Shown here one piece after another: positions 19,997 through 62,861 of a DNA stretch of 64,000 nt. A program made the translations under genes and the position numbers. The stretch's first letter is position 1; each line of letters starts with the position of its first letter. Below the pieces are notes generated by a model that saw nothing but the letters and a program-made list of their open reading frames with translations, was not told the origin of the DNA and searched no databases. Source of the stretch: Dehalococcoidia bacterium (GTDB lineage Bacteria > Chloroflexota > Dehalococcoidia > DSTF01 > WHTK01); assembly GCA_965197795.1 (NCBI GenBank), contig OZ240228.1, positions 171,765 to 235,764 of the forward strand, read 5' to 3'.

Positions 19997-20117
19997 CGCG
20001 GCGCGTAGAAAGTCGGTTCGTCTGGCAGTAAGCACACCGACGTAGGAGGCCGGACGGTTGGTTCTGGGAGAACGGGCTGCTTGGTCCTTCGGCTGCTGGC
20101 GCGGCTCAGGAGGACAA

Positions 20118-21212
20118 TTAGAAACGGATCACGACGATCTGGTCGACCGCCGACTCCGGCGACCAGATCTCGCCTTCGCGTCCCAGGATCTGGCGCACGT
20201 TGCCGCCGGGGTGCGGCAGCTCGAAGGTGAGGAACGTCTCGGTCTCGGGGTCGAAGCGATGGATCGCGTTGCCGCCGAAGTCTGAGAGCCAGACCGCATC
20301 CAGCTCATCGACGTAGACGGCGTAGGCGCTGGGGTTGACGCCCGGCAGCGGCCACGTCTGCCAGGAGTCGTCCGTTGGGTCGTATACGGAGACCTGACCG
20401 GCGTTCCATTCGCTGACCCAGATGCGGCCTTGCGAGTTGGACCAGACGCGTCGCGCGCCCTGGTTGGGCGTCGGCGGCTCGATGACAGTCGCTTCTCCGG
20501 TTTCGATGTCGATGTGGCCCATGTAGCTTCCGGCGAGCGAGGCGTAGTAAATGTCGCCGTTGGGCGTCGAGGTGATGCCGTAGGGTCCTCGGCCCTCGGC
20601 AGCGTCATAGACCTGCATATCGCCCGTTACGGGATCGACGCTGCCGTAAACGCCGTTCTGTCCGGTGTACCACAGCACGTCGTTGCGATCGAAGGCTGCC
20701 GTGTTGAGGTTGACATTGCCGCGTTCGGCGGGCAGGTCGAAGAACGTGATCTCATCTGTTTCCGGGTCGACCCGGACGATGGCGTTGAGCCCGCCGTCGG
20801 TGATCCACGGCGCGCCGTCCGGCCCGACGATGACGCCGTGCGGCCGCGAGCCGGCCCCGAGCGGGATCTCGCGGACATCGCCGGTTGCCGGGTCCAGCCA
20901 ACCCAGCTTGCCGCTGCCCTGCGCCGTGTACCAGACGCCGCCGTCGACGGCGGGCGCGACGTCGTGCGGCCGCGATCCGGCCGGGACGGGATAAGCTTGC
21001 ATGACGAAGTCGGCGACGCCCAGCGGTCTTGCTGCGGCGCCTTCTGTCGGTGCCGGCGCAGGTGTCTCGCTGGCTTGCGTCGCCGGCGGCGGCGCTGTAT
21101 CAACCGGCGTTTGGGTGTTGGTTGCCGCCTGCCCCGGTTCGTCACGGCCGGAGCAGGCAACGAGCAGGAACAGGAACAGCGCCGCCATGACGAGGCATCG
21201 TTTGCTGTTCAT
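20118..21212 (-). CDS. Secreted lipoprotein with six-bladed beta-propeller, Vgb (streptogramin lyase)/SMP-30-like family
   Basis: Signal peptide + lipobox (LLVACSG) and a Pro/Thr-rich linker. Repeated blades carry GPxGIT...DG.IW(F/Y)T motifs (PHGVIVGPDGAPWITD, GPYGITSTPNGDIYYAS). The antisense ORF 20430..21263 is rejected. Confidence 0.65.
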   Translation of the reverse strand: MNSKRCLVMAALFLFLLVACSGRDEPGQAATNTQTPVDTAPPPATQASETPAPAPTEGAAARPLGVADFVMQAYPVPAGSRPHDVAPAVDGGVWYTAQGSGKLGWLDPATGDVREIPLGAGSRPHGVIVGPDGAPWITDGGLNAIVRVDPETDEITFFDLPAERGNVNLNTAAFDRNDVLWYTGQNGVYGSVDPVTGDMQVYDAAEGRGPYGITSTPNGDIYYASLAGSYMGHIDIETGEATVIEPPTPNQGARRVWSNSQGRIWVSEWNAGQVSVYDPTDDSWQTWPLPGVNPSAYAVYVDELDAVWLSDFGGNAIHRFDPETETFLTFELPHPGGNVRQILGREGEIWSPESAVDQIVVIRF

Positions 21213-21354
21213 CGCTACAGATCAGGATACGCGCCCGGCGGATGCGGTGGATGGACGCCTTGACCCAGAGTCCGTAGACACGTCGATCGCGGCTTGGGAG
21301 GTTAGGGCCGGCGCGGACCAGGGACTTGTGGCTACGGCCGACAGCGGCAGTGCG

Positions 21355-21756
21355 TCAGGATTGTTGGATGAAGGTCTCGCAGTTTTGGTCGACGTTTTTG
21401 TCACCGTCGGTACCGGAAAGCGCTACATCGGTACCGAGGCCACAGTCGATGTCGTCCTTAAAGTCGCCGGTCAGGACGCAGTCATCGCCATCGCCGGCGT
21501 CGACGATGTCTCTGCCCGCGCTGCCCGTGATCAGCTCATTAGCAGCGGTACCGTTGATCGAGCCGCTACCGGTGATCTTGGCCGTGAGGTTAAGCGCGGC
21601 GCATTCGACAGGCTTCAAGTCGTTAGGAGTGATCGTGGAGATGTGATCGGCGGCGTTGGTGACGGGTACCGTGTTGGACGCCGTAAGTGCGCTCACGCCG
21701 GTGCCTATCAGCACCGCGAGCAGGAACAGCAGGCTAAGCCGCCGCAGGCCGTGCAT
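21355..21756 (-). CDS. Small secreted protein with SipW-cognate-like signal peptide and Asp/Gly-rich calcium-binding-type repeats
   Basis: N-terminus MHGLRRLSLLFLLAVLIGTGVSALTASNTVPVTNA. The ALTASNTVP motif is shared with the paralog at 23518..23855. The C-terminus is rich in GxGxD/DGD repeats. Confidence 0.5.
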   Translation of the reverse strand: MHGLRRLSLLFLLAVLIGTGVSALTASNTVPVTNAADHISTITPNDLKPVECAALNLTAKITGSGSINGTAANELITGSAGRDIVDAGDGDDCVLTGDFKDDIDCGLGTDVALSGTDGDKNVDQNCETFIQQS

Positions 21757-22430
21757 CGTCGCCCTCTGCGTCGCTTACCGTGAGACGGTCTTCGGTTTGA
21801 TAGCTATAGACGGCGCTGCCGTCGTGAAGGAAGTAGGTGTGCTGTTGACCGCTCTGGCTGTGGAGTATGGTCAGCTCCAGCTTTTCGGCCATCCGTACGA
21901 GGCTCTTCATGTTGGCCGTTTGGAAGTGAGTACCTTGAATCGACAGTGCGAAGTACTCCACATCTACTAGCATGGGGCCGTAGGTACGCTTGATCCTGAC
22001 GGACTCGTTGAGTACGGGATTGCGTCTCGCCAGGGTCACGAGAAGCGCCACGCAGGGCGAAATGAGGACCGCGGCCACCCAACCGAGATTTCGAGCGCGC
22101 TGGCGCTGATACTGAGGCTGAGAAAGCCTAGATTGTTGGTCAGGACGCGCTCGGCTTCGATCTCACCTCGATCGACCTGCGTGAATTGCTCCGGCGAGCT
22201 GATGATTACCCGTCCGTCTGCCGAAGGCAGAATTTGCAGCGCATCGAGCAGGAAATAGACGGTTGGCGGCGATTGGATGGGATCGCAGCAAGGCTGGCCC
22301 GCGACCGTGCCGTTGACAGCCATGTTCGCGTGGATGCTGAGCAGGTAGGTTTCGCGCGGGATGCCGGTGAACGTCTTGAAGTCTTCGATCAGTTGATCGA
22401 GCAGCGCCAGGTCGATTGAGCCCTCCAGTC

Positions 22431-23462
22431 TCAGCTCGTTCCATCGAACTCGGTTTCGGGCCCGAGAGCGAACGCACGTTTCCAGCCGCTCTCCTCGCTG
22501 ACCTCCATGACGAGTTGACCGGTTCCGGACATGAAATGCGGGACTACGGCTGAAAACTCATAGTCGAAGTAGACGTCGAAGCTATCCACGAGGCGCCTGA
22601 AGATGGGCTCTCCGGTCATGAGCGGAGGTTCTATGTAGACCGGATCCGGGCTGACGTTGGCTGAGTAGGCGAATTCGCTGGACTGCTGGTAGATCGAGCG
22701 CGTGGTCTCCGACTGCGTCTTGGGCTGGGTAAGCGCGAACGCACCTAGAAGCAGGATTGGTACCAACCCTGCCACGAGGCCTATGAGAAGCATTTCGAAG
22801 CGATTCTTGCGGTCAGAAGTGCCTGGCGGCGCGCGCGTAGATTCGGGACCCGTGTTCTCCTCTTCGCTTGCAGACGATCGCAGAGAGCTGAGGAACATAC
22901 GCTGCGATCGCAAGAAGATGCGAAGCTCACTGAGAGGCCCGGTGGGTTCCGCCTTTCTCCTGGCCCCATCAGGGCCCCGCATGCGGCGACGCTTTCGAAT
23001 CACGAAGAGGCCACCGAAACTGATGAGACTGCCGACGCAGAGCAGCAGGGCAGCGTTTATGGGCCGGCTGGCCCATATCAGATAGGTCTCGGCCTTGGGG
23101 ATGTGGGTGAACGGCACGCCTAGCACGTCGTCTCGAGTCGGCTGGTACTCATCGATCCATGGGTTGTTGTCACCCTGAGTCGTGAATATGCCGGGGCCGC
23201 GCTCGATGACCCGGTGCATGACTGTGACGTCGAGCAGATCGCTGCGATAGGCGATGATGTCGCCGACGTCGTAGTCGTCGGCAGAACGGGCCAGCACGAG
23301 GTCGCCGGCGGTGAACACCGGCTCCATGCTCTGACCTTCAACGACTAGGTATGAGACCTTGCCACCCAGCGCGGTTGGCGCCAGCTGAAGCCATGCGTAG
23401 AGAAGGGCAGCCAGCAAGCCGATTACCAGCAAGGTCGTTTTGGGGCGAAATTTCGTCAGCAT
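22431..23462 (-). CDS. sipW: Signal peptidase I, SipW/archaeal-eukaryal type (S26B) with long C-terminal extension
   Basis: N-terminal TM, then VVEGQSMEPVFTAGDLV (catalytic Ser box), then the His box (TVMHRVIE). A second TM follows, plus ~170 extra residues with another TM. See the finding on possible continuation into 21734..22431. Confidence 0.7.
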   Translation of the reverse strand: MLTKFRPKTTLLVIGLLAALLYAWLQLAPTALGGKVSYLVVEGQSMEPVFTAGDLVLARSADDYDVGDIIAYRSDLLDVTVMHRVIERGPGIFTTQGDNNPWIDEYQPTRDDVLGVPFTHIPKAETYLIWASRPINAALLLCVGSLISFGGLFVIRKRRRMRGPDGARRKAEPTGPLSELRIFLRSQRMFLSSLRSSASEEENTGPESTRAPPGTSDRKNRFEMLLIGLVAGLVPILLLGAFALTQPKTQSETTRSIYQQSSEFAYSANVSPDPVYIEPPLMTGEPIFRRLVDSFDVYFDYEFSAVVPHFMSGTGQLVMEVSEESGWKRAFALGPETEFDGTS

Positions 23463-23517
23463 GCTCAGTTCTTGTCGCGCGAAGACTGCGCGCTCTCCGC
23501 CAGCTCCTCCTTTCTCT

Positions 23518-23855
23518 AGTCAGCGATCACCACACGGAGTTCGTCGGCCGTGGCCACCGTTGCCTGCGGTGAGGTCCGTTACACAGGTGAGGGCGGTGGT
23601 TACGTTCGTGCAGCTGTACCAGGTAGAACCTGCCGCGACGAGTTTGATCTCCATGTCGGCGCCGGCTGAGGGAGCAACGTCCACGTCGAAAGTCACGGAG
23701 TCGATGTTCGAGGGGTTGGCGGCATTGAGGTTGTAGTTCACGTTGCTGACCGCATAGCCAGAAATCGCGCCGGTGCCATCACGCGCTTTGGAGGCAGGCA
23801 CGGTGTTGGCGGCAGTGAACGCGTAGGCCGTGAAGGTGAGCAGCAGCGTCAGCAC
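23518..23855 (-). CDS. Small secreted protein, putative SipW substrate (paralog family FDVDVAPxAGxDxExxL), 3' end frameshifted
   Basis: Begins MLTLLLTFTAYAFTAANTVPASKA. The C-terminus in the track frame ends TAGNGGHGRRTPCGDR. The +1 frame reads ...QATVATADELRVVIAD, which aligns with the paralog end ...TQAIVLLTDELQVIIVD. Confidence 0.5.
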
Positions 23856-24125
23856 CGGTACCAGAAAGACGCCGGCGGACCTTCTCAGCAGATAGAGACT
23901 GTAAATGCCGGCGACCTCCCTGTCGTACGACCTAGGTTCGTTCTGACTCCGCGCGAACAGCCGTTAGCGTAAGCCTTGAGCTTTCCGGGAGGTCAGTAGG
24001 GAACCACCTGATATGGCGCCATCACAGAAGGGAGAGCCTTGGCTCAATATGCTGCGCACGAAAGAAAAGAGAGGGCTCCATGCGGGCCCTCTCTTCCTGA
24101 CTAGTTGGTTAGACGTTAGCTCAGG

Positions 24126-24353
24126 CTAGTCGACGATAATGACTTGCAGCTCGTCTGTGAGCAGCACGATTGCCTGGGTGCCTACCGTCGTGTCACACGT
24201 CACGGCGAGGACAAGGAACGTGCAGGCGTACCAGACGCCCGAGCCATCGTCGAGACTGACCTCGATATCAGAGCCGGCTGTCGGCGCTACGTCTACGTCG
24301 AAGAGGACCTGGTCAATCAGCTGCGGGTCAGCGCCGTTCAGCGTGTAACCCAA
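24126..24353 (-). pseudogene. Degenerate paralog of the small secreted protein (no signal peptide in frame)
   Basis: The 75-aa ORF shares FDVDVAPTAGSDIEVSL...ACTFLVLAVTCDTTVGTQAIVLLTDELQVIIVD with 23518..23855. Upstream, in another frame, a relic start MRGLRRRLRAP... resembles MHGLRRLSLL of 21355..21756 but lacks the hydrophobic core. Confidence 0.4.
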
Positions 24354-24555
24354 GTACCAGGCATGGGACTACTAGGAACCGGGGAGCCCGCAGGCGGCGG
24401 CGTAATCCTCGCATTATCTAACCTACGTTTCCTCGTGTCAGCAATTCTTTGACGACTTGGCGACACGTTTCTCAATTTGTGCTTTCAGTATTCTGGACAA
24501 ATGCGAAGGCTTATTTAGAGGGTCCTCACGGGCGCCTGAGTTACGCTGTCAGTGT

Positions 24556-25128
24556 CTAGCTTGGTCCACCGCTGATGCTGATCAGGCCGTCGCCGATCTC
24601 GCTGCCGATCAGGTTCTCGTCCAGCTCCAGCGTTCGCGCGTCGTCGTCCAGCAAGAGGTTGAGCACGGCGTCCGCAACGAAGCCCGGCAGGTTGCCGACG
24701 TCGACGGAGTCGAGCTGAAGCATGGGCTGAGCGCCGCTTGTGTCGAGTCGCCCCGTGACCACGAAGTCGACGTTGACGCCGATCGCCTCGACCTCGCCGG
24801 CCAGCTGGCCTCTGCCTTCGTCGCAGAAATAGACGCGCAGGTTGTCGATTGGCGCGTTCTCATCGTTGACGTACTGACGCGCGCGAGATGTCGCCTCCGA
24901 CTCTGAGATGTCGATCGACGAGCCGGCGGCGAGGATCTGGGCCGAGAACTGATCCCAGCGCTGGTCGAGTTGAGTCGCTACGGCCGCTGAGATCGGCGCA
25001 ATCTCGCGGTCGGTGCAGGTTCCGGGCGAACCGGTGACGACGAGGAGCACGCCCAGGGAAGCGGCGGCGACGGAGATGAAGAAGAAGCCAGGTATCGCGA
25101 AGAGGACGATCTTAAGTACTAGACCCAT
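24556..25128 (-). CDS. Hypothetical N-terminally membrane-anchored protein (first gene of the sipW cluster)
   Basis: 190-aa ORF; one N-terminal TM (IVLFAIPGFFFISVAAASLGVLLVV), the rest acidic and soluble. Operon-like spacing with the downstream genes. Confidence 0.45.
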   Translation of the reverse strand: MGLVLKIVLFAIPGFFFISVAAASLGVLLVVTGSPGTCTDREIAPISAAVATQLDQRWDQFSAQILAAGSSIDISESEATSRARQYVNDENAPIDNLRVYFCDEGRGQLAGEVEAIGVNVDFVVTGRLDTSGAQPMLQLDSVDVGNLPGFVADAVLNLLLDDDARTLELDENLIGSEIGDGLISISGGPS

Positions 25129-25154: not shown

Positions 25155-26099
25155 CTACCGCGATTCGAACGGCGGCTGTTCGCTCCAGTCCTTGATGATG
25201 TAGTGGGCGATGGCGATCGAGCCGGGGATGCCGAAGCCGTGCTTCTCTGGGTTCGGGTCGAGAAGCGCCATGCGTATCTCATCTCTCGTGAACCAGCGGG
25301 CTCCGTCCAGCTCCAGCGGGTCGACCGTCTCCTGCTCGCTCGTGACGTGCGCGAAGCAACCGATCATCAGGGACGAGGGGAAGGGCCACGGCTGCGAACG
25401 GCGATAGACGACCTCATCGACGTCCAGGCCGACCTCCTCCTTGACCTCGCGTTTGACGGCCTCTTCGATCGTTTCACCCTGATCGAGAAAGCCGGCCAGG
25501 GCGGAGTAGCGATGCGGCTCCCAGGCGCGCGCACGGCCCAGGATGCAGCGGTCGCCGCGCCACACCACCATGATCACGACCGGGTCGGTGCGCGGGAAAT
25601 GCTCCGCCCCGCAGGCGTCGCATGCGCGCATCGAGCCCGCAACGCGCGGCTCGGTCGGCGTGCCGCAGTTGGGGCAGAAGCGATGCCGGTTGTGCCAGTC
25701 GATCACGGAGCGGGCGTGGGCCAGCGTGCCGGCTTCGCCAGGGGCCAGCAGCGCCGCGGCGGCCCTCGTGTCGCTGAACTCCGCGCCGTCCAGCTCCAGC
25801 GTCGCCAGCGGTTCTTCCAGCGGCGAGAGGTCGATCGCGAAGTGCGCTATGTCATCGCGCATACCCAGCAATACCGGCCCGTCGCGCTCGGCGCCGTGGC
25901 GTAGTACCGAGGAGTCGAGCCAAAGCAGTTCGATGGCTTCCTGGCCCGCCGGAAGGCTGCGAGTCAGGGGGTTATTTTTCCACAGCGGCAGGAAGCGGCT
26001 GGCCGGCGCATCGAGCTGGGCCTGCACCCAGTCCGGGTCGCGGCGCTCGTTGCTAGCTCGCCACAGCGGATCGCCGGAGAACGGTATCGGATCGGACAT
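25155..26099 (-). CDS. nudC: NAD+ diphosphatase (NADH pyrophosphatase) NudC
   Basis: Zinc-ribbon CPNCG...CDACG followed by a Nudix box (GFLDQGETIEEAVKREVKEEVG). The start is chosen at Met71 of the track ORF (315 aa). Confidence 0.8.
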   Translation of the reverse strand: MSDPIPFSGDPLWRASNERRDPDWVQAQLDAPASRFLPLWKNNPLTRSLPAGQEAIELLWLDSSVLRHGAERDGPVLLGMRDDIAHFAIDLSPLEEPLATLELDGAEFSDTRAAAALLAPGEAGTLAHARSVIDWHNRHRFCPNCGTPTEPRVAGSMRACDACGAEHFPRTDPVVIMVVWRGDRCILGRARAWEPHRYSALAGFLDQGETIEEAVKREVKEEVGLDVDEVVYRRSQPWPFPSSLMIGCFAHVTSEQETVDPLELDGARWFTRDEIRMALLDPNPEKHGFGIPGSIAIAHYIIKDWSEQPPFESR

Positions 26100-26335
26100 C
26101 GGTTGCCTTCCTAGTGCTCGGCCCATGATAGCCGCTCGCCAGTGCTCAGACATCGGCGCGACGTTGGCCGATGACCCGGCGTAAAAAGACCGATCTGCTG
26201 CTGAAGCGACCGCGAGGTCTGGTAAAAGCGCCGCCGGGTTGCGGAGAATGCGCCTAAACCGGGCCCGGTCCGGCCAGGCGATTGTATTCAGGGCGTGGCC
26301 GATGGTCACGCGCCGGTTTGAATGAGGTTCCAGCT

Positions 26336-34165: not shown

Positions 34166-34241
<76 letters not shown>

Positions 34242-41056: not shown

Positions 41057-42274
41057 CTACTCTAACGAGCGAAGGTCTACGGATTCATCCTGCAGTTGAG
41101 GGACATCGAGGAGTCGCTGAGACGCAATTAGAGGAATCGCACGCCGGAGATCTCTGGCACGGTTTACCGCGACGGCAGCAACCATTACGCCATGCTGGAG
41201 ATAAAACGTAACGAACTCCCGGTCTTCGGGGCTTCCTCGCGTTACGAGTTCATCCGCTTCACCATGAAAGCCAGCGTACTGAATGTTCAAGTTGAATTGG
41301 TCCGACCAAAACCAGTGGACCTCACGGTAGGGCTCTCCACGGCCCATCATGCTCTTGGCCGCTGCCGTGCCTTGGCGCATGGCGTTCTGCCAGTGCTCAA
41401 CGCGTATATGGCGACCTAGTAGGGGATGAAAATGATTGGCTACATCGCCGGCGGCAAACACACCATCCAGACTTGTGCGGCAGTACTCGTCAACCACGAT
41501 ACCGTTGTCGAGTGAGACATCCGTGTCTGTGAGTAGATCGGTGACCGGCTCGATTCCCACGCCGAACACCACGAAGTCGCATTCGAGTCGTTGACCGTTG
41601 CGTGTGACGACGCTTTGCACTCGACCGTCGCCCTCAAAGGCCTCCACGAAGTCGCCAAAGTGCATCTTGACGCCGTGATCGCGGTGGACGGACTCAACAA
41701 GTCGACTGAGTTCCTCTCCGAGGGCGCCTCCCAGGGGTAGATCCAGACCCTCAACGACGGTTACGTCCAGGCCCATTTCGCTCAGAGAAGCGGCGACTTC
41801 TGAGCCAATAAAGCCCATGCCAACGACTACGACGCGGGCACCCGGTTGCGCCTCCGAGCGAATGCGGTTCGTGTCCGCGATTGTTCTGAGGTCATGCACC
41901 CCTTCCAGGTCGATGCCCGGTATCGATAATCGCCGGTTGCGGCCGCCGGTGGCGATTAGCAGGTTGTCGTAGGGAACAAGCCTGCCGTCAGCGAGTTCCA
42001 CAACCTTGCCCGCCGGATCCACGAGGGTTGCGGGCACTCCAAGTAGGGTCTCTATGCTGTTGGACGCGTAGAAGTCAGCGGGTTGCAGCAGCATTTTGTC
42101 TACCGGCATCTCGCCTCGTAGATATTGCTTCGATAGAGGAGGACGTTCGTAAGGCAACTGTGGCTCAGCGCCGATCAGCACAATCCTGCCGTCGAATCCC
42201 TCCTGGCGAAGGCCAAGAGCCGCGCTGCCGCCGGCGAGATTCGCGCCGACGATAACAAAAGTCTCCGGCATCAA
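41057..42274 (-). CDS. FAD-dependent NAD(P)H:ferredoxin oxidoreductase (putidaredoxin/rubredoxin reductase family)
   Basis: VIVGANLAGGSAA (FAD GxGxxG) and a second Rossmann motif VVVGMGFIGSEVA (NAD). The 405-aa length fits CamA/BphA4-type reductases. Confidence 0.85.
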   Translation of the reverse strand: MMPETFVIVGANLAGGSAALGLRQEGFDGRIVLIGAEPQLPYERPPLSKQYLRGEMPVDKMLLQPADFYASNSIETLLGVPATLVDPAGKVVELADGRLVPYDNLLIATGGRNRRLSIPGIDLEGVHDLRTIADTNRIRSEAQPGARVVVVGMGFIGSEVAASLSEMGLDVTVVEGLDLPLGGALGEELSRLVESVHRDHGVKMHFGDFVEAFEGDGRVQSVVTRNGQRLECDFVVFGVGIEPVTDLLTDTDVSLDNGIVVDEYCRTSLDGVFAAGDVANHFHPLLGRHIRVEHWQNAMRQGTAAAKSMMGRGEPYREVHWFWSDQFNLNIQYAGFHGEADELVTRGSPEDREFVTFYLQHGVMVAAVAVNRARDLRRAIPLIASQRLLDVPQLQDESVDLRSLE

Positions 42275-42327
42275 TAGAAATGTTTCTCCTTGGGAGGAAG
42301 CAGTCAGACTAATTCAAGGCCGGAGGC

Positions 42328-42639
42328 CTAGCCAAGGTCGACCGATACGTCCTGTCCGTTCACCTCGACCGGGTATACGGCTATGGGATCAGTCGCAGGC
42401 GGCGCGGTGTTCTGACCGGTGAGGATGTTGAACTTACTGCCATGACAGAGGCACTCGACTTCCTGGCCGTTTACCTCCCCCTCCTCGCTGAGGAGGCATT
42501 CCTCATGCGGACATACGTCGGAGGTCGCCACCGGCTTGCCGTCTACCAGGTAGAGGGCAACCTTGGTATCTCCCAACTCGACGCCCGTGACTTTGTCGGC
42601 GGATAGATCAGATAGTCCTGCCGCACGTCGGAATGGCAT
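42328..42639 (-). CDS. Rieske [2Fe-2S] ferredoxin (oxygenase electron-transfer component)
   Basis: CPHEECLLSEEG...CLCHGSKF (CxH...CxxH). The real start is Met101 of the track ORF (103 aa), and the gene lies directly downstream of the reductase. Confidence 0.75.
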   Translation of the reverse strand: MPFRRAAGLSDLSADKVTGVELGDTKVALYLVDGKPVATSDVCPHEECLLSEEGEVNGQEVECLCHGSKFNILTGQNTAPPATDPIAVYPVEVNGQDVSVDLG

Positions 42640-42763
42640 TTCAGACTCTCCTAACTTGCAATTGAAACTTGAGCTGTGTTGCACAGGCCAGCGCTGAGAT
42701 TCTAGCTCAACTTTCCAAAACTCGACTGCTTGTGGCCCGGCCCACGCCGTATTCTTTAGTGAG

Positions 42764-43471
42764 TTGTCAGAGAGGATTGATTCCTTGCAGCCTCCCAAAC
42801 TAGTCGCAATACCTGGCGGACAGGCCGTCGTGGGCTGCGACGCGGGTCGTCCCGACGAGCGGCCAGCGCACAGGGTGACGCTGAGGTCCTTTTGGACCGC
42901 TTGCCGTCCCGTAAGCAACCACGAGTACCTAGCCTTCATCTCAGCAACCGGATACCGGGCACCCCTCTTCGCAGAAGACGAGAGGTTTTCGCCACTCGCA
43001 CAGCCAGTCGTCGGAGTGAGTTGGCACGACGCTGTCGCCTATTGCCGTTGGTTGGAATCTGTTACAGGGATAGCCGTCCGGCTACCGACCGAGGCAGAGC
43101 GTGAATACGCAGCCCGGGGTGGCCTCCACGGTGCTGTCTGGCCCTGGGGTGAAGAGGCGCCTGAGCAGCGCAAGAGCATTCAAGAGATCGCTCAATTAGA
43201 GCAGCCCCATATCCCAACCTCCATTTGCAGCAATGGCTACGGTCTGATGTGCATGGCGGACAACGTTCACGAATGGTGCGCCAACTGGTACGTGTCGGAC
43301 TACAATCGCTCTTTGGGAGCAGAGTTGCCACAAGACCCTCCGGCGGTCGAACGCAGAGCGAGTCGCGGAGGCAGCTGGCGTCACCAAATCAAGTTCACTC
43401 GAGTCTCAGCGCGGTCCAGTCTGAATCCATGTTTCAGGTACAACGATTACGGATTTCGCGTCTACGTGTAA
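42764..43471 (+). CDS. Formylglycine-generating-enzyme (FGE-sulfatase/SUMF1/EgtB-C-terminal) domain protein
   Basis: FGE-fold blocks HRVTLRSFW, PVVGVSWHDAVAYCRWL, RLPTEAEREYAARGG, RGGSW...GFR. There is no DinB N-domain. 235 aa (the start may be internal). Confidence 0.7.
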   Translation: MSERIDSLQPPKLVAIPGGQAVVGCDAGRPDERPAHRVTLRSFWTACRPVSNHEYLAFISATGYRAPLFAEDERFSPLAQPVVGVSWHDAVAYCRWLESVTGIAVRLPTEAEREYAARGGLHGAVWPWGEEAPEQRKSIQEIAQLEQPHIPTSICSNGYGLMCMADNVHEWCANWYVSDYNRSLGAELPQDPPAVERRASRGGSWRHQIKFTRVSARSSLNPCFRYNDYGFRVYV

Positions 43472-43786
43472 CGGGGTGAGTCTGAGTCCAGTCCTCGCTA
43501 TCGTGCGAGGAGCTACGGAAGAGGGCGATCGCGCCAAGACTCATAGAATCTGCAACAGTGAGTTTGGGTCGCGACCACGATGCCGTCATAGTACGAGTTC
43601 GTGAAGAACGTCCCGCGGATGAGACGAGGCCGCTTCATTCTGACCTGGTGCGAACCGGATCTCTCGACATCAACTGGACCAGTGGCCCGGTCAACGTCAT
43701 GCAGTTGGTCGACACCTAGAAGACGGACGAACGGACATTAACGTATGTTTGTAACCGTAGATGTCCGTCAGTTGGTTGGAGATGCT

Positions 43787-45016
43787 ATGCAGAGAGTAAT
43801 GCTGCTGATCCCTGGCTCCAGTTATCGAGCAACGGACTTTATGCAGGCGGCTGCCAAACTCGATATTACGGCAGTCGTTGGCAGCGACGAGTGGAACCCG
43901 CTGCAAGACGTGCAGCCCGGCAATTATGCTGAGCTCAACTTCACTGATGTGGACAAAGGCGTTGAACGACTAGAGGCGTTTGCCCGCGAGTACCCGCTAG
44001 ATCGGGTCATCGCTGTCGACGATTCCGGTGTCCGACTGGCCGCTCAAGCTTCCCGTCGCCTTGAGTTGCCGCATAACTCTGTCTCCTCTGTCGAGGCAAC
44101 ACGCAACAAAGCGCTGCTTAGAGAAAGATTGGCCGCCGCCGGCATACCTTCTCCCACCTTTGAGGTGGCCGCCACGGGTAGCCAGGCTCGCCTTCTGACG
44201 CAGGGCTTACGTTTCCCCGTTGTCTTGAAACCGCTTGCCTTATCCGCTAGCCGTGGCGTGATCCGTGCGAATGACAGCGATCAATTCGAGAGCGCATTCG
44301 CCCGAATAGCCCAGATTCTCTCCGACCCTCGCAGCGTCGAAGAGTGCGGCCAACTGTCAGACCAATTCCTTATCGAGGGCTACATCCCTGGTATCGAAGT
44401 GGCGCTGGAAGGGCTCCTTACTGATGGAAGGCTACGCAAACTGGCCATCTTCGACAAACCGGATCCCCTCGAAGGGCCGTTCTTCGAAGAAACAATCTAT
44501 GTCACTCCTTCTCGCCTGCCGAATGGCGACCAGGGCCTCGTTGTAGAGATGGCTGAGCGATCCGCTGCCGCAATTGGCCTGAGAGACGGCGCGATCCACG
44601 TCGAGCTACGACTCAATGATGATGGTGTCTTCCCTGTGGACATAGCAGCGCGATCCATTGGCGGGCTCTGCTCTCGCGCTCTGAAGTTCGAGAACGGGCT
44701 CTCCTTAGAAGAATTAATCCTGCGCAACGCCATCGGTTCTGAAGTCTCTTTCGAAAGAGAGGCCGATGCGGCTGGTGTAATGATGCTCCCTATCCCCAAG
44801 GGTGGCATCCTTCGAGGCGTGGCTGGCGTAGAACTCGCCAAAGCTGTCCCACTGGTTGAATCTGTAGAAATCACAAGTCGGCCCGGGAATCTCCTAGTAC
44901 CCTTGCCCGAAGCGGGCGATTACCTGGGATTCATTTTTGCTCGCGGTAAAGGGCCTCAGGAGGTTGAGGTTGCGCTTCGCGAGGCACACCGGCTGCTTGA
45001 ATTCGACATCGACTAA
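43787..45016 (+). CDS. ATP-grasp enzyme, L-amino-acid-ligase/carboxylate-amine-ligase-like
   Basis: A pre-ATP-grasp N-domain, a central domain (NKALLRERLAAAGIPSP...VVLKPLALSASRGV) and a C-terminal Mg/ATP site (IHVELRLNDDG...PVDIAARSIG). About 410 aa from Met15 of the track ORF. Confidence 0.7.
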   Translation: MQRVMLLIPGSSYRATDFMQAAAKLDITAVVGSDEWNPLQDVQPGNYAELNFTDVDKGVERLEAFAREYPLDRVIAVDDSGVRLAAQASRRLELPHNSVSSVEATRNKALLRERLAAAGIPSPTFEVAATGSQARLLTQGLRFPVVLKPLALSASRGVIRANDSDQFESAFARIAQILSDPRSVEECGQLSDQFLIEGYIPGIEVALEGLLTDGRLRKLAIFDKPDPLEGPFFEETIYVTPSRLPNGDQGLVVEMAERSAAAIGLRDGAIHVELRLNDDGVFPVDIAARSIGGLCSRALKFENGLSLEELILRNAIGSEVSFEREADAAGVMMLPIPKGGILRGVAGVELAKAVPLVESVEITSRPGNLLVPLPEAGDYLGFIFARGKGPQEVEVALREAHRLLEFDID

Positions 45017-45074
45017 GACTTTAGATTCCAAGTGCCCGGTCGAGCGGAGCTAACTGCTCCGTTGTTGGCTCAGC

Positions 45075-46451
45075 TCAACAGAACCAGCCTTCTGTCAATC
45101 CAGGCACAACTCTCTTGGGCTGTGGTACAAGCACGGTTGGGTCGTCCCGACCAGTCAGCATGCGACTCGTGGCGTGCTTCACCTTGCCAAAGGTGACTTC
45201 GTAGGCCTCTCCGTGCGACTCGCTCTCCGAGGCGGTAGCTGCCTCGACGATGCTAGCCACCTCGGCCTGTAACTTGAAGATACGTGGATCAGGATTCGAC
45301 CATGTGTAGGTCAAGGCATCAGGGTCCAGCGGCCCGAGGAGGCCTTGAGCATCGACGACTTCAATGAGCGGGGAACCGGGCGGGATCAAAAGCTTCAGCG
45401 CGTACTGAACTGGCTGGACGTGCCGAACCAGTCCATTGTGCTCGACGAACTCCAATAGTTCACTAAAGTCCTCCAGGCTCACCCAGGGAGTAAAGGCGAC
45501 CCAGGTCGGTCTTAGGACGAGGCCGACGCGGTCGAGCATTGCGACGGCTCGATCCAAGTCCTCCCGCGTGTGCCCCTTTTGCAGCGTGCTGAGGATGTCG
45601 TCATTAGTAGACTCAAACGCGGATGTTACAAACAAGCAGCCAAGATCTCTTAGTCGCGGCAGTAATTCTTCGTATTCGAGCAAGTGCTCGACCTTGATCG
45701 TGACATCGAAGGTTGCGTCCGGATGACGCCGGTGAAGTTCCTCGACGATGCTCAACGAGTGCGGGAGCGCGTTTAAGAAATCGGGGTCTCCGAAGGTGAT
45801 GTGACGGGCGCCCATCGTCACCAGCTGGTCAATGTCGGCGAGGACAGTCTCTTTCTGTACCAGGCGCAGTCGGCCAGCGTATACAGACGTAATGGGGCAA
45901 TGTGTGCAGGTGTGGGCACAGCCGCGGGAAGCCTCCACGTACCCGGCCAGCCTCATGTCACCATCGAGGTCAAGGCGCGCGTAGTCATCGAGATGAGGCA
46001 GGCCTCGGCGATCTGGGGTGAGGTAAGCCTGGCGGCTGAAGAGAGGGACGGCGCCAACGCCGGCCAAAACTCCGCCACCTTCACAAGCCAGGTTCCGGGC
46101 CAAGGCCTCAAGACCAATCTCGTATTCTCCACCGATTACCGAATCGGCCAACCCAGAGCTCATGAGCAGGTCGTGCAAGGGTGATGCGTAGAGGCCGTAA
46201 AAGGCGATGTGTAGATTCGCGTCTATCTGCCTGATTCGCCGGGCCAACTCTATGCCGAGACGGGAGGCAGTGTGCATCGGGATCGAGATGCCGACCAACT
46301 CGGCCTCTGCGAACAGGCCTGGCTCCAGCGTCTGGACGGACAAATCCAGGCAATCGACGTCGTGGCCGGCGCTCCGAAGCACCGCAGCGGGCGCCGCAAG
46401 CCCCAAGGGCTGATGCCCCATCTCGTAGGTAGAAACGAGGAGGACTCGCAC
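45075..46451 (-). CDS. B12-binding domain radical SAM protein
   Basis: The N-terminal cobalamin-binding Rossmann-like domain (MRVLLVSTYEMGHQPLGLA) is followed by the CAHTCTHC CxxxCxxC motif. Confidence 0.85.
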   Translation of the reverse strand: MRVLLVSTYEMGHQPLGLAAPAAVLRSAGHDVDCLDLSVQTLEPGLFAEAELVGISIPMHTASRLGIELARRIRQIDANLHIAFYGLYASPLHDLLMSSGLADSVIGGEYEIGLEALARNLACEGGGVLAGVGAVPLFSRQAYLTPDRRGLPHLDDYARLDLDGDMRLAGYVEASRGCAHTCTHCPITSVYAGRLRLVQKETVLADIDQLVTMGARHITFGDPDFLNALPHSLSIVEELHRRHPDATFDVTIKVEHLLEYEELLPRLRDLGCLFVTSAFESTNDDILSTLQKGHTREDLDRAVAMLDRVGLVLRPTWVAFTPWVSLEDFSELLEFVEHNGLVRHVQPVQYALKLLIPPGSPLIEVVDAQGLLGPLDPDALTYTWSNPDPRIFKLQAEVASIVEAATASESESHGEAYEVTFGKVKHATSRMLTGRDDPTVLVPQPKRVVPGLTEGWFC

Positions 46452-46456
46452 CAGCC

Positions 46457-47074
46457 TTACTTCTTTGTGGGTTGGTAGTAGGGGTTTTCGCCGGACGCGT
46501 GGTCAGTTTGGTCCACGACTCGTTCGATCTCGGAGACAGCTTCGACGATGGTGGCTTCGATCCCTTGCTTCAACGTGACGTCCGCCATGCCGCAGCCCTG
46601 ACAACCCCCGCCTAGCTCTATGACGGCAGTTGTGCCTTCGACGTGAAGGAGATCCATGTAACCGCCGTGTGCTGCGATCGCTGGGTTGAGTTGATCATCG
46701 ATAATGTGCTGAATTTTTGCTTCAATTGCGCCCCACCACAGGGGGTTCGGGTTAGTAAACTCCAGGCCGCTACGGTCTTCCCCTTTGTAGCGGTAGTGGA
46801 CCTGTACAGCGCTGAGGTAAGCGGCATTCTTTCCCTCTACGAAGATCGGGACAGGCAGGCCTGGCTCCGCCAAGGGTAGGTCTCCCTCCGTCTCTTTCCC
46901 TTGTTCGACAAGACTCAATACATGCTCGAACCTGCCATGCACCCTGCCGGTGATCTGGAGACGCAGACCGGCAACAGGGCTCGGGCTATTGCCGACGACC
47001 TCACGCAGTTTCGCGATTGCGTCATCCGTCAAGCTGACAGATGGCTCTGCGGATTGCTGCCTGGTGTCAGTCAT
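46457..47074 (-). CDS. NfuA-like Fe-S cluster carrier (degenerate A-type N-domain + Nfu C-domain)
   Basis: The C-terminal GGCQGCGMADVTLKQGIE matches the Nfu CxxC motif. The N-terminal ~100 aa are HesB/IscA-like without the full Cys triad. Confidence 0.65.
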   Translation of the reverse strand: MTDTRQQSAEPSVSLTDDAIAKLREVVGNSPSPVAGLRLQITGRVHGRFEHVLSLVEQGKETEGDLPLAEPGLPVPIFVEGKNAAYLSAVQVHYRYKGEDRSGLEFTNPNPLWWGAIEAKIQHIIDDQLNPAIAAHGGYMDLLHVEGTTAVIELGGGCQGCGMADVTLKQGIEATIVEAVSEIERVVDQTDHASGENPYYQPTKK

Positions 47075-47306
47075 TTCTCACCTCGGGATCTGGTCCCCCT
47101 GCTAAACGCCGTTACTAGTTTACGCCCTAAGAGCGCTTCAGATTATGCGCGGATGGCGTCACGGGCAGGTTGACAAGTGGGGTAGCTTCGCAACGAGGCC
47201 TCTTTGTTGAGCTGGATCTTCGATTTTGTGAGGGACTTCAGCGCGTGTATAGTCTTAACAGACTGTCCAGTGGGGGCATCGTTACCAGAGTATCGAGGTT
47301 GCACAA

Positions 47307-48014
47307 ATGGACAAGGTAGAGAAAGTCAATGAATTACTCGGTCTGCGGATCCCAGCCGTCGCTGTGTCGTTTCTCGACGAGCCGCCGACTGGGTTACGTG
47401 CCTGGGATGGGCCACCTCAGCCTGCCGGTTGTGCCTTTTGGCGTTGGGCAGCTGAGGGGCGCGCCTTCTACACTGAACCGTCCGACCACTACAACTGCGC
47501 GATAGGCTCCTACACCCACGCAATCGACCTGCCACCTGCGCGATCCAGTGAACTGGACGAGACGGTAAAGATGATGGTAAGGGCCAGCTACCTTCGAACT
47601 TCAGAAGTGCCCGAGATACCACGGCTAGCTCAGACGCCAAACTTTATAGCCTATGGTCCTGCGGACGACCCCGGCTTTCAGCCCGATGTGGTGTTGATGA
47701 CTGCGACGCCGCATCAAGCGATGCTGATTTACGAAGCCACTATGCGAGCCGGTCTCAGTTCTCCGATCAGCAACATCATGGGTCGGCCAACCTGCGCCGT
47801 CTTGCCTCTAACATTGAGCAGGAATTCACCAGGTGTGTCGCTTGGATGTGCTGGTAACCGCGTTCACACAGGACTTGGTGATCATGAGCTTTACGTTTCG
47901 ATCCCAGGAGCGAATTGGTCCGCATTCAAAGCCAGCCTCCTGGAGATTCTCGTGGCGAACCGAACCATGATTGAGTTTTACGAGGAGAAGGAGAAGACAG
48001 GCGGTGTCTCTTAA
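47307..48014 (+). CDS. DUF169-family protein
   Basis: 235-aa ORF. VAVSFLDEP...GCAFWRWAAEGRAFYTE...NCAIGSYTH pattern recalled from DUF169; a by-memory assignment. Confidence 0.5.
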   Translation: MDKVEKVNELLGLRIPAVAVSFLDEPPTGLRAWDGPPQPAGCAFWRWAAEGRAFYTEPSDHYNCAIGSYTHAIDLPPARSSELDETVKMMVRASYLRTSEVPEIPRLAQTPNFIAYGPADDPGFQPDVVLMTATPHQAMLIYEATMRAGLSSPISNIMGRPTCAVLPLTLSRNSPGVSLGCAGNRVHTGLGDHELYVSIPGANWSAFKASLLEILVANRTMIEFYEEKEKTGGVS

Positions 48015-48041
48015 GCCTCCGGTCTCCCGTCACGGTCGCTC

Positions 48042-48650
48042 GTGACGAAGGAGATGCAAATGTCCCGCAGGCGAGTCGCAGCTCTGAAGTCGATTGACCG
48101 CGAGAATACGGCTGACCCGTCGCATATCCTCTTTGAAGCGGAGGACTACGCCACGGCACTGATCGAGGGTGTCCGGGCCCACCACTGGGTACAACACCTG
48201 CGGCCAGATGCGCCTGACCCTTTGCTAATCGCCGCACGAGGCCACCACCTCCGGCGATGGGAAATTCCACGTAATTCCTATCCACACGCGCCACGGCTCT
48301 CTCGCTTGGCGGAACCGTCTTTATGATTTCCAAGCCGAGGCTGTGGCAGGAGTGATGCAACGCGTGGGCTAGACCCAGGATGACATCGCACAGGCTGGCC
48401 GTCTGCTCCGAAAACAGGACCTAAAGGCGGATGCGGACGCCCAGACGTATGAAGATGCCGTTAGCCTGGCCTTCTTAGAGGTGCGGCTGAGGTGCGGCTC
48501 GCATCGTTTATGGAGACTGTCACGACCGGGCAGCTAACGCGAGCACTTCACAGCACCTGGCGCAAGATGAGTGAATCAGGACACGCAGTAGCGCAGACAC
48601 TAATCCTCGAGCCACGAGCAGCAGACGTCGTACTTCGCGAGCTCACTTAA
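48042..48650 (+). pseudogene. DUF4202-like protein broken by frameshift(s) and an in-frame stop
   Basis: The N-terminal piece (track ORF 48042..48326) has HHLRRWEIPRNSYP. Downstream continuations (WRNRLYDFQAEAVAGVMQRVG*, then QDDIAQAGRLLRKQDLKADADAQTYEDAVSLAFLEVRL) are in other frames. Confidence 0.35.
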
Positions 48651-48769
48651 CAGGCACAGTCCTGGGCCTCGACGGGCCGCAACCGCTCCGGAGTAGCGGC
48701 TGGGGGACACGAGCGGTCATCCAGCCTGACTATGTCGGCCGCAAACCGGGACGAAACTCAGCGTGGCCC

Positions 48770-49129
48770 AGCAGCGAATCCCTACTCTGGGCTACTTTGC
48801 CAAAGAGACGCTGACGCCGTCGATGCTCGCAGCTTGCTGTTGCAGGAGACGCAGGCGTAAACGCCTTGAGGATGTGCTCGATTACGCGGACGCGAGACCG
48901 GAGGGGCCGGCGTCTGGTCTGGGTGGAGCTGACGCCGGCGGGACGCGAGATTTCCGAGGAAGCGACGAGGATCGTCCTCGCCATGGCCTCCGAGCTTGCC
49001 CCCGTGCTGCGAGGCCCCGATTCGGAAGAGATGCTCGCTGTTTTGAGTCAAACTCGCGATACCGGCTTCAAGATCGCCGGCGTGCGGGAAGGCGTTCGCC
49101 AAGAAGCACTTCGGCGCGTCTGGGGCTAG
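48770..49129 (+). pseudogene. MarR-family regulator remnant
   Basis: Track ORF 48866..49129 reads ...TRDRRGRRLVWVELTPAGREISEEA, the wing + dimerization helix of MarR. Upstream HTH fragments are scattered over other frames, and the overlapping long ORFs on both strands look non-coding. Confidence 0.3.
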
Positions 49130-60238: not shown

Positions 60239-60308
60239 AAGATCCGGCACGGTAAATGACCCCAAGCCTACGTACCAGAAGCTAACCGCCTGAGCACGGA
60301 GAATCCTT

Positions 60309-62385: not shown

Positions 62386-62726
62386 GAGAACTTGCCGTAA
62401 AGACTGAACCAAAGCTATCGATAGGTGGATCGCTGGTCACGGTGCAGCGATTCTGTCGTCGAAGAGCGAGGGTGTAAAAACCAAACACGATCGGGCGATA
62501 GTGTCACGTCGTCCGGGCCTGCAGCGCTCGTCTTAGGTTCTCGATCTCGGCCCGTAGTCTCAGCTTCTCGTGCCCACCAGCATTCTGAGTAGTTTCTTCC
62601 CTCAAACCCCGTTCGGAGCCGACCCCCTAATTGACGGTGCTCGCAACTCCCTAATTGCTCGCAGCTTGCATGTTGTATCCAGGTTCCAGAAGCTCGTTAG
62701 CAGCTTGCATTGGACCAGGATAATTA

Positions 62727-62797
<71 letters not shown>

Positions 62798-62861
62798 CGG
62801 CACACGCCGCGTCGAAATGGGCGTTCACGCGAGTCCCGATTTGGTTAGCGTCGAGAAGCGC

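Follow-up and report, generated by a model that had tools for sequence, protein, structure and literature searches.

The region between positions 20118 and 25128 of a 64,000-nucleotide stretch of Dehalococcoidia bacterium DNA (assembly GCA_965197795.1, contig OZ240228.1, positions 171,765 to 235,764; the whole stretch is referred to here as the window) encodes a signal peptidase with genes for small secreted proteins on both sides of it. The question raised by this locus is whether the peptidase and its neighbours form a dedicated export system and, if so, what that system builds. An earlier note on the same DNA had described a seven-gene SipW-type cluster and had proposed a secretion, fibre or matrix module; its observation was real and its interpretation right in kind, while its anatomy was incomplete. 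With moderate confidence, the region is interpreted here as a decayed copy of a conserved three-part exported-protein module, most likely one that builds an extracellular fibre.

The gene content was compared after a scan limited to one genome per species, which gave 148 relatives; in the loci kept from it, all open reading frames (ORFs) were translated and searched with the parts of an intact relative. Eighty loci were kept and 81 loci were tabulated; one pair is a duplicate record, so counts of distinct loci are lower by one. Within the Chloroflexota the hosts were Anaerolineae, Dehalococcoidia, Thermoflexaceae and the cultured Pelolinea submarina, and within the Actinomycetota they were Acidimicrobiales, Thermoleophilia and Gaiellales. 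A peptidase gene lay directly downstream of the small-protein gene and on the same strand in 77 of the 81 loci (76 of the 77 evaluable distinct loci). Three of the four loci without a peptidase end at a contig edge just past the small gene, and the fourth, L057, shares its genome with the complete locus L046, of which it is a second copy. The small-protein family is therefore tied to the peptidase and was not found to occur freely without it, the situation that the earlier note had considered damaging to its proposal. Peptidase and DUF5305 were encoded on one ORF in 69 loci (68 distinct), and a third gene was found 3' of the peptidase in 71 loci (70 distinct). Hydrophobic at its N-terminus, the product of this third gene carries the motif (A/T)A(A/S/T)N(T)VP.(S/T)(R/K), followed by a Cys-rich GGxGxD domain ending in CET.IQ. 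Regulators, sortases and anchors were sought in 80 loci and none was conserved, a histidine kinase being present in 15 loci and an ABC ATPase in 11. As only these neighbours are conserved across the loci, the core is taken to be one or more subunit genes, followed by the fused peptidase gene and then by a beta-roll gene.

In the window this core amounts to four genes (two small paralogs, the fused peptidase and a 133-aa protein) and not to the seven-gene cluster previously described, although all the ORFs are on the minus strand with the coordinates given in the earlier note. The features of the region are as follows.

24556-25128, minus strand: acidic N-anchored protein of 190 aa with a hydrophobic N-terminus and an isoelectric point (pI) of 4.05; a neighbour only
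24126..24414, minus strand: paralog 1, a pseudogene with a 104-bp deletion; a 75-codon ORF is left at 24126-24353
24059..24095, minus strand: terminator-like hairpin from an RNA fold, just 3' of the paralog 1 stop
23516..23906, minus strand: paralog 2, frameshifted, with an ATT start; the listed 111-codon ORF is 23520-23855
21734..23462, minus strand: signal peptidase-DUF5305 fusion gene, broken; a 343-codon ORF at 22431-23462 and two further frames
21355..21756, minus strand: RTX beta-roll protein of 133 aa, intact; matched by PF00353 and modelled by AlphaFold2 (AF2)
20118..21212, minus strand: Vgb_lyase-family beta-propeller lipoprotein of 364 aa with an LVAC lipobox, matched by PF24684; a neighbour only

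The peptidase ORF matched TIGR02228, the model of archaeal/ER-type signal peptidase I (S26B-like in MEROPS), with 75.6 bits (3.8e-21; cut-off 51.85), and intact homologues scored 72.7-78.5 bits, in keeping with the broad SipW-type Ser/His class to which it had been assigned. Residues S45 (within GxSMEP), H83, R84, D98, N100 and D104 were invariant in 77/77 peptidase homologues. The Ser/His pair, with no catalytic Lys, is located in an extracytoplasmic domain behind an N-terminal anchor, the first transmembrane segment (TM1). On the Bacillus SipW equivalog model NF046067 the window ORF reached 30.8 bits and the homologues at most 45.3 bits, against a cut-off of 190; judged by these profile scores, the enzyme is a relative of SipW and not an orthologue.

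The extra C-terminal region that the earlier note had assigned to the peptidase exists, but it reads as a DUF5305 domain, and the gene that encodes it is now spread across three frames. Its intact part, codons 1-343 (23462-22431), covers TM1, the catalytic domain with S45, H83, R84 and D98, TM2, a basic linker and TM3. Single-base deletions at about 22441 and about 22097 spread the DUF5305 part, TM4 and the C-terminal domain over two more frames, and the gap of roughly 670 bp that separates the peptidase ORF from the 133-aa gene contains two other-frame ORFs, one of which matches the C-terminal half of DUF5305. A tblastn search with a 581-aa homologue placed residues 1-342 in frame -3, 342-462 in frame -2 and 457-567 in frame -1. 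Syntenic relatives (78% DNA identity) encode a single protein of 562-581 aa at this position, the intact homologues measuring 576-581 aa. Scores on DUF5305 (PF17231, gathering score 29) were 19.6 bits for the window fragment 21734-22078, 22.8 for the near-identical strain L005 and 30.2 for the intact relative L003, and PF17231 is among the precomputed annotations of distant homologues. In the intact 576-aa form there are four hydrophobic TM segments (7-32, 134-157, 220-247 and 458-481), of which TM3 and TM4 bracket about 210 residues and are followed by a C-terminal tail of about 95 residues. The predicted topology starts with an anchor and an external catalytic domain; TM2 leads from there to a basic linker in the cytoplasm, TM3 back to an external domain of about 210 residues, and TM4 to a cytoplasmic tail. 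DUF5305 has been described as a peptidase accessory consisting of an external beta-sandwich, two TM helices and a cytoplasmic domain (bioRxiv 10.64898/2026.01.04.697558), and the segment layout of the C-terminal part, taken from the TM positions, agrees with this published architecture. By domain content, then, the fusion appears to be a signal peptidase joined to a complete DUF5305 protein.

The small secreted paralogs upstream of the peptidase are the candidate subunits. Both contain the FDVDVAPxAGxDxE motif that had been recognised in the earlier note (24126-24353 and 23520-23855), and the signal-peptide endings AFTAANTVP in paralog 2 and ALTASNTVP in the 133-aa protein were also as reported there. 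The length of about 110 aa given for the paralogs was an underestimate: intact precursors have about 125-130 aa and the mature part about 96 aa. One of the two had been called decayed; the decay is real, and lesions are carried by both paralogs and by the peptidase gene.

Paralog 1 begins at an ATG at 24414 with the signal peptide MRGLRRRLRAPRFLVVPCLV, of which 22 codons are kept, and its C-terminal 75 codons (24126-24353) still encode ...FDVDVAPTAGSDIEV...LQVIIVD. Between these parts, at 24347/24348, 104 bp are missing, so that the signal peptide is cut short, the cleavage motif and the first mature residues are gone and the reading frame is shifted; in near-identical strains the lost segment corresponds to ...AGYAYTAANIVPASKAGDGTGAVTGYTISNID. 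The gene is intact, encoding a 130-aa protein, in the near-identical assemblies L004, L005, L086 and L087, and in this form it is the probable major subunit. Directly after the stop codon is the hairpin (24059..24095, minus strand; z = -2.3), followed by UUUUCUUU, and L003 has a comparable inverted repeat, which was read from the sequence and not folded. A consensus scan missed the hairpin, for which a loop longer than the 8-base limit of the scan is taken as the reason.

The 111-codon ORF of paralog 2 contains ...AYAFTAANTVPASK... and FDVDVAPSAGADMEIKL. The start of the gene is not the GTG at 23855 but an ATT at 23906 (23904-23906, minus strand), which aligns with the ATG of the homologue P0007, has a Shine-Dalgarno sequence GGGAGG 8 nt 5' of it and opens a signal peptide ending ...TAYAFTAA|NTVPASK. 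The ATT, the GGGAGG and the entire signal peptide are kept in L003 (at about 7950), with 78% DNA identity, and the ATT is therefore regarded as a real, weak start codon. That it might be a start-codon lesion was considered and discarded, the same ATT being present in this relative in an otherwise intact gene. The start chosen by gene callers is too late, being either the GTG, which gives 111-112 aa, or an internal Val, which gives 94 aa. At about 23577 an extra G causes a +1 frameshift which replaces the last roughly 20 residues and ends the listed ORF at 23520, while the ancestral C-terminus TSPQATVATADELRVVIAD can be read in the next frame as far as a stop at 23516-23518. Intact homologues are P0006 and P0007. 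The hairpin would by itself fit a highly expressed major subunit; considered along with the weak ATT of paralog 2, it is in keeping with a major subunit accompanied by a low-level second subunit. The leader of paralog 2 (about 23907-23995, minus strand) is unusually similar between relatives, the approximately 95 nt 5' of the ATT being about 92% identical to L003 against 78% locus-wide. Within it, GACCUCCC is exactly complementary to GGGAGGUC, the Shine-Dalgarno region some 65 nt further downstream, and the two are paired in the minimum-energy fold. The leader may be an element that sequesters the Shine-Dalgarno sequence; its fold was no better than that of shuffled sequence (z = 0.32), and the two species compared gave no covariation. 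A promoter consensus scan gave one match where 0.9 were expected by chance and so provided no evidence.

A search with the frame-corrected paralog 2 recovered 279 proteins of about 125 aa, with zero Pfam domains and almost none of them named. A profile of 71 sequences matched 1,617 cluster representatives (50% identity) at E <= 0.001, 857 of them at E <= 1e-10. The family consensus is a hydrophobic N-terminus followed by YAFAAANTVPASKAGDGSGAISGYTVS.V.Y.LN..NP.NIDSVTF.LD.AP.AGS..KIKLVAAGSTWYSCTN.TTA.TC.T..PQATV..AD.LRVV.AD., in which two Cys are invariant and the block N-T-V-P...A-G-D-G...G-Y is nearly so, the best-conserved stretch being the segment directly after the predicted cleavage site. 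Counted from the invariant Asn, the mature part is 93-97 aa long with a median pI of 4.9. Pfam and NCBIfam scans of the small proteins returned sub-threshold noise (DUF6318, SpaA_2 and DUF7285) and no family. An AF2 model from the 71-sequence alignment (mean predicted local distance difference test score, pLDDT, 76.9) consists of an N-terminal helix, which is the signal peptide, an unplaced segment at residues 34-48 (ANTVPATKAGDGATA; pLDDT below 50) and a seven-strand beta domain (pLDDT 84-93).

The cultured Arthrobacter pascens (L088 4557-7032, JAUSXF010000001.1) has a fused peptidase-DUF5305 gene preceded by one for a 125-aa protein. Compared with the subunit family by hhalign, this protein gave a probability of 86% and E = 5e-6, and on that alignment a distant relationship is probable. 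AFTAASGIDQ replaces AFTAANTVP in it, and the downstream 143-aa gene is unrelated, its product lacking both a signal peptide and an RTX repeat; further on there is a gene for a 278-aa secreted protein.

The 133-aa precursor downstream of the peptidase contains ...SALTASNTVPVTN... and a signal peptide ending ...SALTAS|NTVPVTN; its mature part has 106 aa, four Cys and a pI of 4.05. The Asp/Gly repeats that had been likened to calcium-binding sequences are RTX repeats, the window protein scoring 23.5 bits on PF00353 (gathering score 23) and the Pelolinea homologue 42.3 bits. In the AF2 model residues 41-130 have a pLDDT of 92-97, the N-terminal segment is unplaced and there is no sandwich domain; the model superposes on serralysin-family beta-rolls at 0.7 Å over 49 residues. 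As modelled, the protein is a small RTX beta-roll with putative calcium binding. A 21-bp (7-aa) length difference from L005 in this gene is regarded as a polymorphism and not as a lesion, as it is in frame and the short form is also found in L086 and L087.

The two substrate families were compared around the predicted cleavage site in 57 loci. Both have A/T at -3, A at -2, A/S/T/G at -1 and then Asn and T-V-P, and the Asn was present in 57/57 loci in each family, a pattern predicted to suit signal peptidase I cleavage right before the Asn. Over 15 positions round the site the two proteins of one locus shared 8.19 identities, against 7.48 +/- 0.14 between loci (0/5000 permutations, uncorrected for shared ancestry), as illustrated by VPESG in both Pelolinea proteins. 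Such likeness within a locus would be expected from co-adaptation to one peptidase or from strand mimicry. The search against SipW-cognate signal-peptide models that had been recommended in the earlier note gave no match: neither the SipW-cognate and alternate classes (TIGR04088 and TIGR04089) nor any other NCBIfam signal-peptide class was matched by full-length proteins or N-termini at E <= 10, in searches whose HMMER filters may hide weak matches to short models. Tat export was rejected; twin arginines are present in some n-regions, including those of the three window proteins, but not consistently across the family.

Loss of module function in the window was assessed by comparison with four near-identical assemblies (L004, L005, L086 and L087), which are 99.1-99.8% identical to the window over the region. 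As sequenced, the window module would be non-functional, with one subunit gene deleted in part, the other frameshifted and the peptidase frameshifted twice past its catalytic domain. Indels were counted over 12.1 kb aligned between the window, L004, L086 and L087, with L005 compared separately, and only three were private to the window: the 104-bp deletion in paralog 1 and the two 1-bp deletions in the peptidase gene, all inside the module. Other strains differ. L087 has a different 1-bp peptidase deletion 17 nt away, which results in a 357-aa product (P0284), while both L086 and L087 have lost 1 bp of paralog 2 where the signal peptide meets the mature domain, and 110 bp of the Vgb-like gene. 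The window, L004 and L005 have in common the +1 frameshift of paralog 2, which is not found in L086 or L087. The paralog 1, peptidase, 133-aa and Vgb-like genes are each intact in at least one strain; paralog 2 is lesioned in all five, its intact form being deduced from relatives such as L003 and P0007. From these alignments the decay appears to be recent and to differ between strains.

The presence of differing inactivating indels in conspecific assemblies (>99% identical over 20100-24450) points either to recurrent loss or to a stretch that assembles badly, and if the lesions were assembly or consensus errors the module would be intact and functional in the organism. The related records seem from their contig names to be of low coverage (3x, 6x and 9x), L004 has more than ten private 1-bp indels over 12 kb, and L001 and L003 each have a different frameshifted gene. 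Many of the L004 indels are clearly errors, and some single-base lesions may therefore be artefacts. Three private indels in 12.1 kb would, however, all fall by chance in the roughly 3.06-kb core in about 1.6% of cases if placed at random, the 1-bp deletions are outside long homopolymers, and a 104-bp deletion is in our judgement atypical of base-calling errors. Other conspecific assemblies are lesioned differently in the same genes, and intact ORFs of 1097, 1010 and 721 codons are present elsewhere in the window. One lesion measures 104 bp, and every one of them falls within the module, with long intact ORFs over the remainder of the window; on these two grounds the window lesions are likely to be mostly real, and it is rather improbable that errors account for them and leave a working module.

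In its intact form the module is proposed to work as follows. The precursors, of which there are one to three small ones of about 125 aa and a single beta-roll one of about 130 aa, would be exported, probably by Sec, and cleaved by the dedicated archaeal/ER (endoplasmic reticulum)-type Ser/His peptidase, to which a DUF5305 (TafG-like) accessory domain is joined by way of two additional membrane spans. The cut would be made just before the invariant Asn, (A/T)-A-(A/S)|N-T-V-P, as suggested by the -3/-1 rule and by conservation. The released subunits of about 96 aa would be acidic beta-sandwiches with one disulfide that polymerise on the model of TasA, ABP and Tafi, the N-terminal NTVPA(S/T)KAGDG serving as the donor strand. 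The beta-roll protein, with the same N-terminal segment and no sandwich, may act as a TapA/TafC-like nucleator, tip or terminator, probably in a calcium-dependent manner. This reading of the module as a fibre is based on the gene linkage, the intact catalytic residues, the shared cleavage motif, the beta-roll model and the literature on Tafi. A SipW-type peptidase with small substrates of its own, as the earlier note had envisaged, is borne out by the linkage (76/77), the shared Asn and the DUF5305 domain, but the window copy as sequenced is non-functional. By analogy, the module is probably a surface fibre or matrix system.

Several results weigh against a fibre, and against the reading as a whole. 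Foldseek comparison of the subunit model with the PDB gave a best E-value of 0.3, with weak and non-significant Ig-like matches, and neither TasA, AbpA and TafE nor any other solved pilin was matched significantly; the TasA-like jellyroll that the earlier note had raised as a possibility was therefore not obtained, the predicted core being a seven-strand beta domain that does not superpose on TasA, AbpA or TafE. A profile search of PDB sequences gave nothing better than E = 0.39 and zero pilins, and no member of the 71 matched the TasA (PF12389) or DUF1102 Pfam models at E <= 10. As modelled, the monomer already has seven strands, so that a missing strand is not evident, and the proposed donor segment is short, Gly/Ala-rich and not clearly amphipathic. 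The covariation test of the motif ignores the shared ancestry of the loci, an (A/T)-A-(A/S) site could in principle also be cleaved by a housekeeping signal peptidase, and the window lesions could in part be assembly errors.

The main rival to a fibre is that the peptidase is dedicated to these substrates and that they do not polymerise, being soluble or wall-associated proteins such as calcium-binding adhesion or matrix factors, in which case the conserved N-terminal segment would be a recognition element for the peptidase only. The conserved motif does straddle the cleavage site as a recognition element would, the seven-strand monomer domain looks complete, and the subunit has no structural or sequence tie to known donor-strand pilins. 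Conservation nevertheless reaches 10-18 residues into the mature protein (NTVPASKAGDGxGAISGY), beyond what a signal peptidase usually reads, and several subunit paralogs accompanied by an odd protein that shares their N-terminus reproduce the pattern of TasA/TapA and TafA/TafC/TafE. DUF5305-linked peptidases have, moreover, so far been described in fibre loci (PMC11821415, PMC12337348, bioRxiv 10.64898/2026.01.04.697558), and we regard non-polymerising substrates as unlikely, if still a serious contender. It is far less probable that the hydrophobic N-termini are uncleaved signal anchors and that the small proteins are membrane-held partners of a peptidase-like scaffold. The AF2 models have a long N-terminal helix that would suit such an anchor; the catalytic Ser/His pair, however, is invariant in 77/77 peptidases, the small -3/-1 residues and the invariant +1 residue fit a cleavage site, and the two invariant Cys and low pI fit a released extracytoplasmic domain.

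Taken as a peptidase-dependent fibre module, the locus is closest to the archaeal Tafi (Tat-fimbriae) system, with its pilins TafA, TafE and TafC, and to the tapA-sipW-tasA operon. In Haloarcula hispanica the peptidase TafD is required both to process the major subunit TafA and to form Tafi, has the same His-83/Arg-84 pair and is proposed to be assisted by TafG, a DUF5305 protein (PMC11821415); cryo-EM (electron cryo-microscopy) of Natrinema Tafi demonstrated donor-strand assembly, with a role in biofilms (PMC12337348). Shared with Tafi (Haloarcula hispanica and Natrinema sp. J7-2, with Sec counterparts in Thermococcales and Archaeoglobales) are an archaeal-type Ser/His peptidase with the His-Arg pair and a coupled DUF5305, several small secreted beta-rich subunits alongside, a minor subunit that differs in its C-terminal domain, and machinery in the cytoplasmic membrane of a cell without an outer membrane. 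The window module differs in that peptidase and DUF5305 are a single polypeptide and the hosts are bacteria. Its subunits are about 96 aa and not about 150-200 aa, with no match to DUF1102, Tafi or TasA models; export in the family is not consistently of the Tat type; the minor subunit is an RTX beta-roll; and no gene for a TafB regulator or TafF anchor is conserved near window-type loci. Bacterial peptidase-DUF5305 fusions have been noted earlier, including one in Tepidiforma (PMC11821415), and one is cited in Anaerolinea thermophila (bioRxiv 10.64898/2026.01.04.697558). A literature search found no published account of the 96-aa subunit family, the beta-roll partner or the three-gene module.

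The tapA-sipW-tasA operon of Bacillus subtilis likewise has three genes, one for a dedicated SipW-type peptidase and the others for a minor protein and the major subunit of the fibre, and by analogy the N-terminal strand of the minor protein would nucleate polymerisation. The window peptidase, in contrast, is below the NF046067 cut-off and carries DUF5305, the gene order differs, the subunits are not Peptidase_M73/TasA (PF12389) and their signal peptides are off the SipW-cognate models. AbpX-type calcium-responsive biomatrix loci (bioRxiv 10.64898/2026.01.04.697558) also combine acidic secreted subunits, a dedicated peptidase and a DUF5305 accessory, with a possible role for calcium. Their peptidase is described as having ten TM helices, whereas that of the window module has four TM segments; AbpX is a 163-aa TasA-superfamily jelly-roll and the 96-aa domain is unrelated to it; and the calcium-binding motif of the window module is in a separate minor protein. 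Chaperone-usher pilins are comparable in having a small beta-sandwich subunit, to which there is a weak Ig-like resemblance, and in the N-terminal donor strand proposed here, but the window module has no chaperone, usher or outer membrane, and no sequence or Foldseek match connects the two. The module family is accordingly placed as a variant of the peptidase-dependent fibre systems with an unnamed subunit family.

The genes at the two ends of the region had been counted in the cluster by the earlier note. The N-anchored acidic protein and the beta-propeller lipoprotein are as described there, but the 190-aa protein has homologues in the closest relatives alone (2/81 loci), and the Vgb-like protein likewise in close relatives alone; this restriction rules both out as module components, and they are regarded as neighbours. 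The 190-aa protein had no Pfam or NCBIfam match. The lipoprotein matched PF24684 with 105 bits (threshold 50; 3.3e-30), while the NCBIfam Vgb(A)/Vgb(B) models gave 78.9 (Vgb(B)) and 60.5 bits against a cut-off of 600, and by these scores it belongs only to the broad Vgb_lyase propeller family and is not the streptogramin B lyase Vgb. Elsewhere, a NUDIX/NADH-pyrophosphatase-like ORF at 25155-26309 (minus strand) has 384 aa from an upstream GTG while its relatives have 313-314 aa, and its true start is probably internal. A tRNA-Gly(GCC) at 34166-34240 (plus strand) was the sole Rfam/ARAGORN match in the 64-kb window, and in a crude gene map 41700-49100 and 60200-62900 contain few ORFs with the high third-position GC typical of the window.

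Fibres made by dedicated peptidases (TasA, ABP, Tafi and AbpX) have only recently been seen as a matrix or pilus system common to bacteria and archaea, and the module would carry that system into two large, mostly uncultured phyla that are common in soil and sediment. The subunit family comprises at least 1,617 clusters at 50% identity and is unnamed in Pfam and NCBIfam; the ATT start codon and the frameshifts explain why gene callers split or truncate the module genes. TafG-type proteins have been proposed to be peptidase subunits, and support for this comes from the natural fusion of DUF5305 to the peptidase. Cultured carriers exist in Pelolinea submarina MO-CFX1 and, more distantly, Arthrobacter pascens, which makes the prediction directly testable. 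Put together, and advanced only tentatively, the findings would describe a widespread, previously undescribed surface fibre of Chloroflexota and Actinomycetota, in cells that lack an outer membrane. It would have the smallest known donor-strand subunits (about 96 aa, of non-TasA sequence), one fused peptidase-DUF5305 and a calcium-binding mini beta-roll that mimics the strand as a nucleator or cap, and the module would have been repeatedly and independently knocked out within one species. If true, such repeated knockout within a species would suggest that display is costly, for instance because the fibre serves phages as a receptor.

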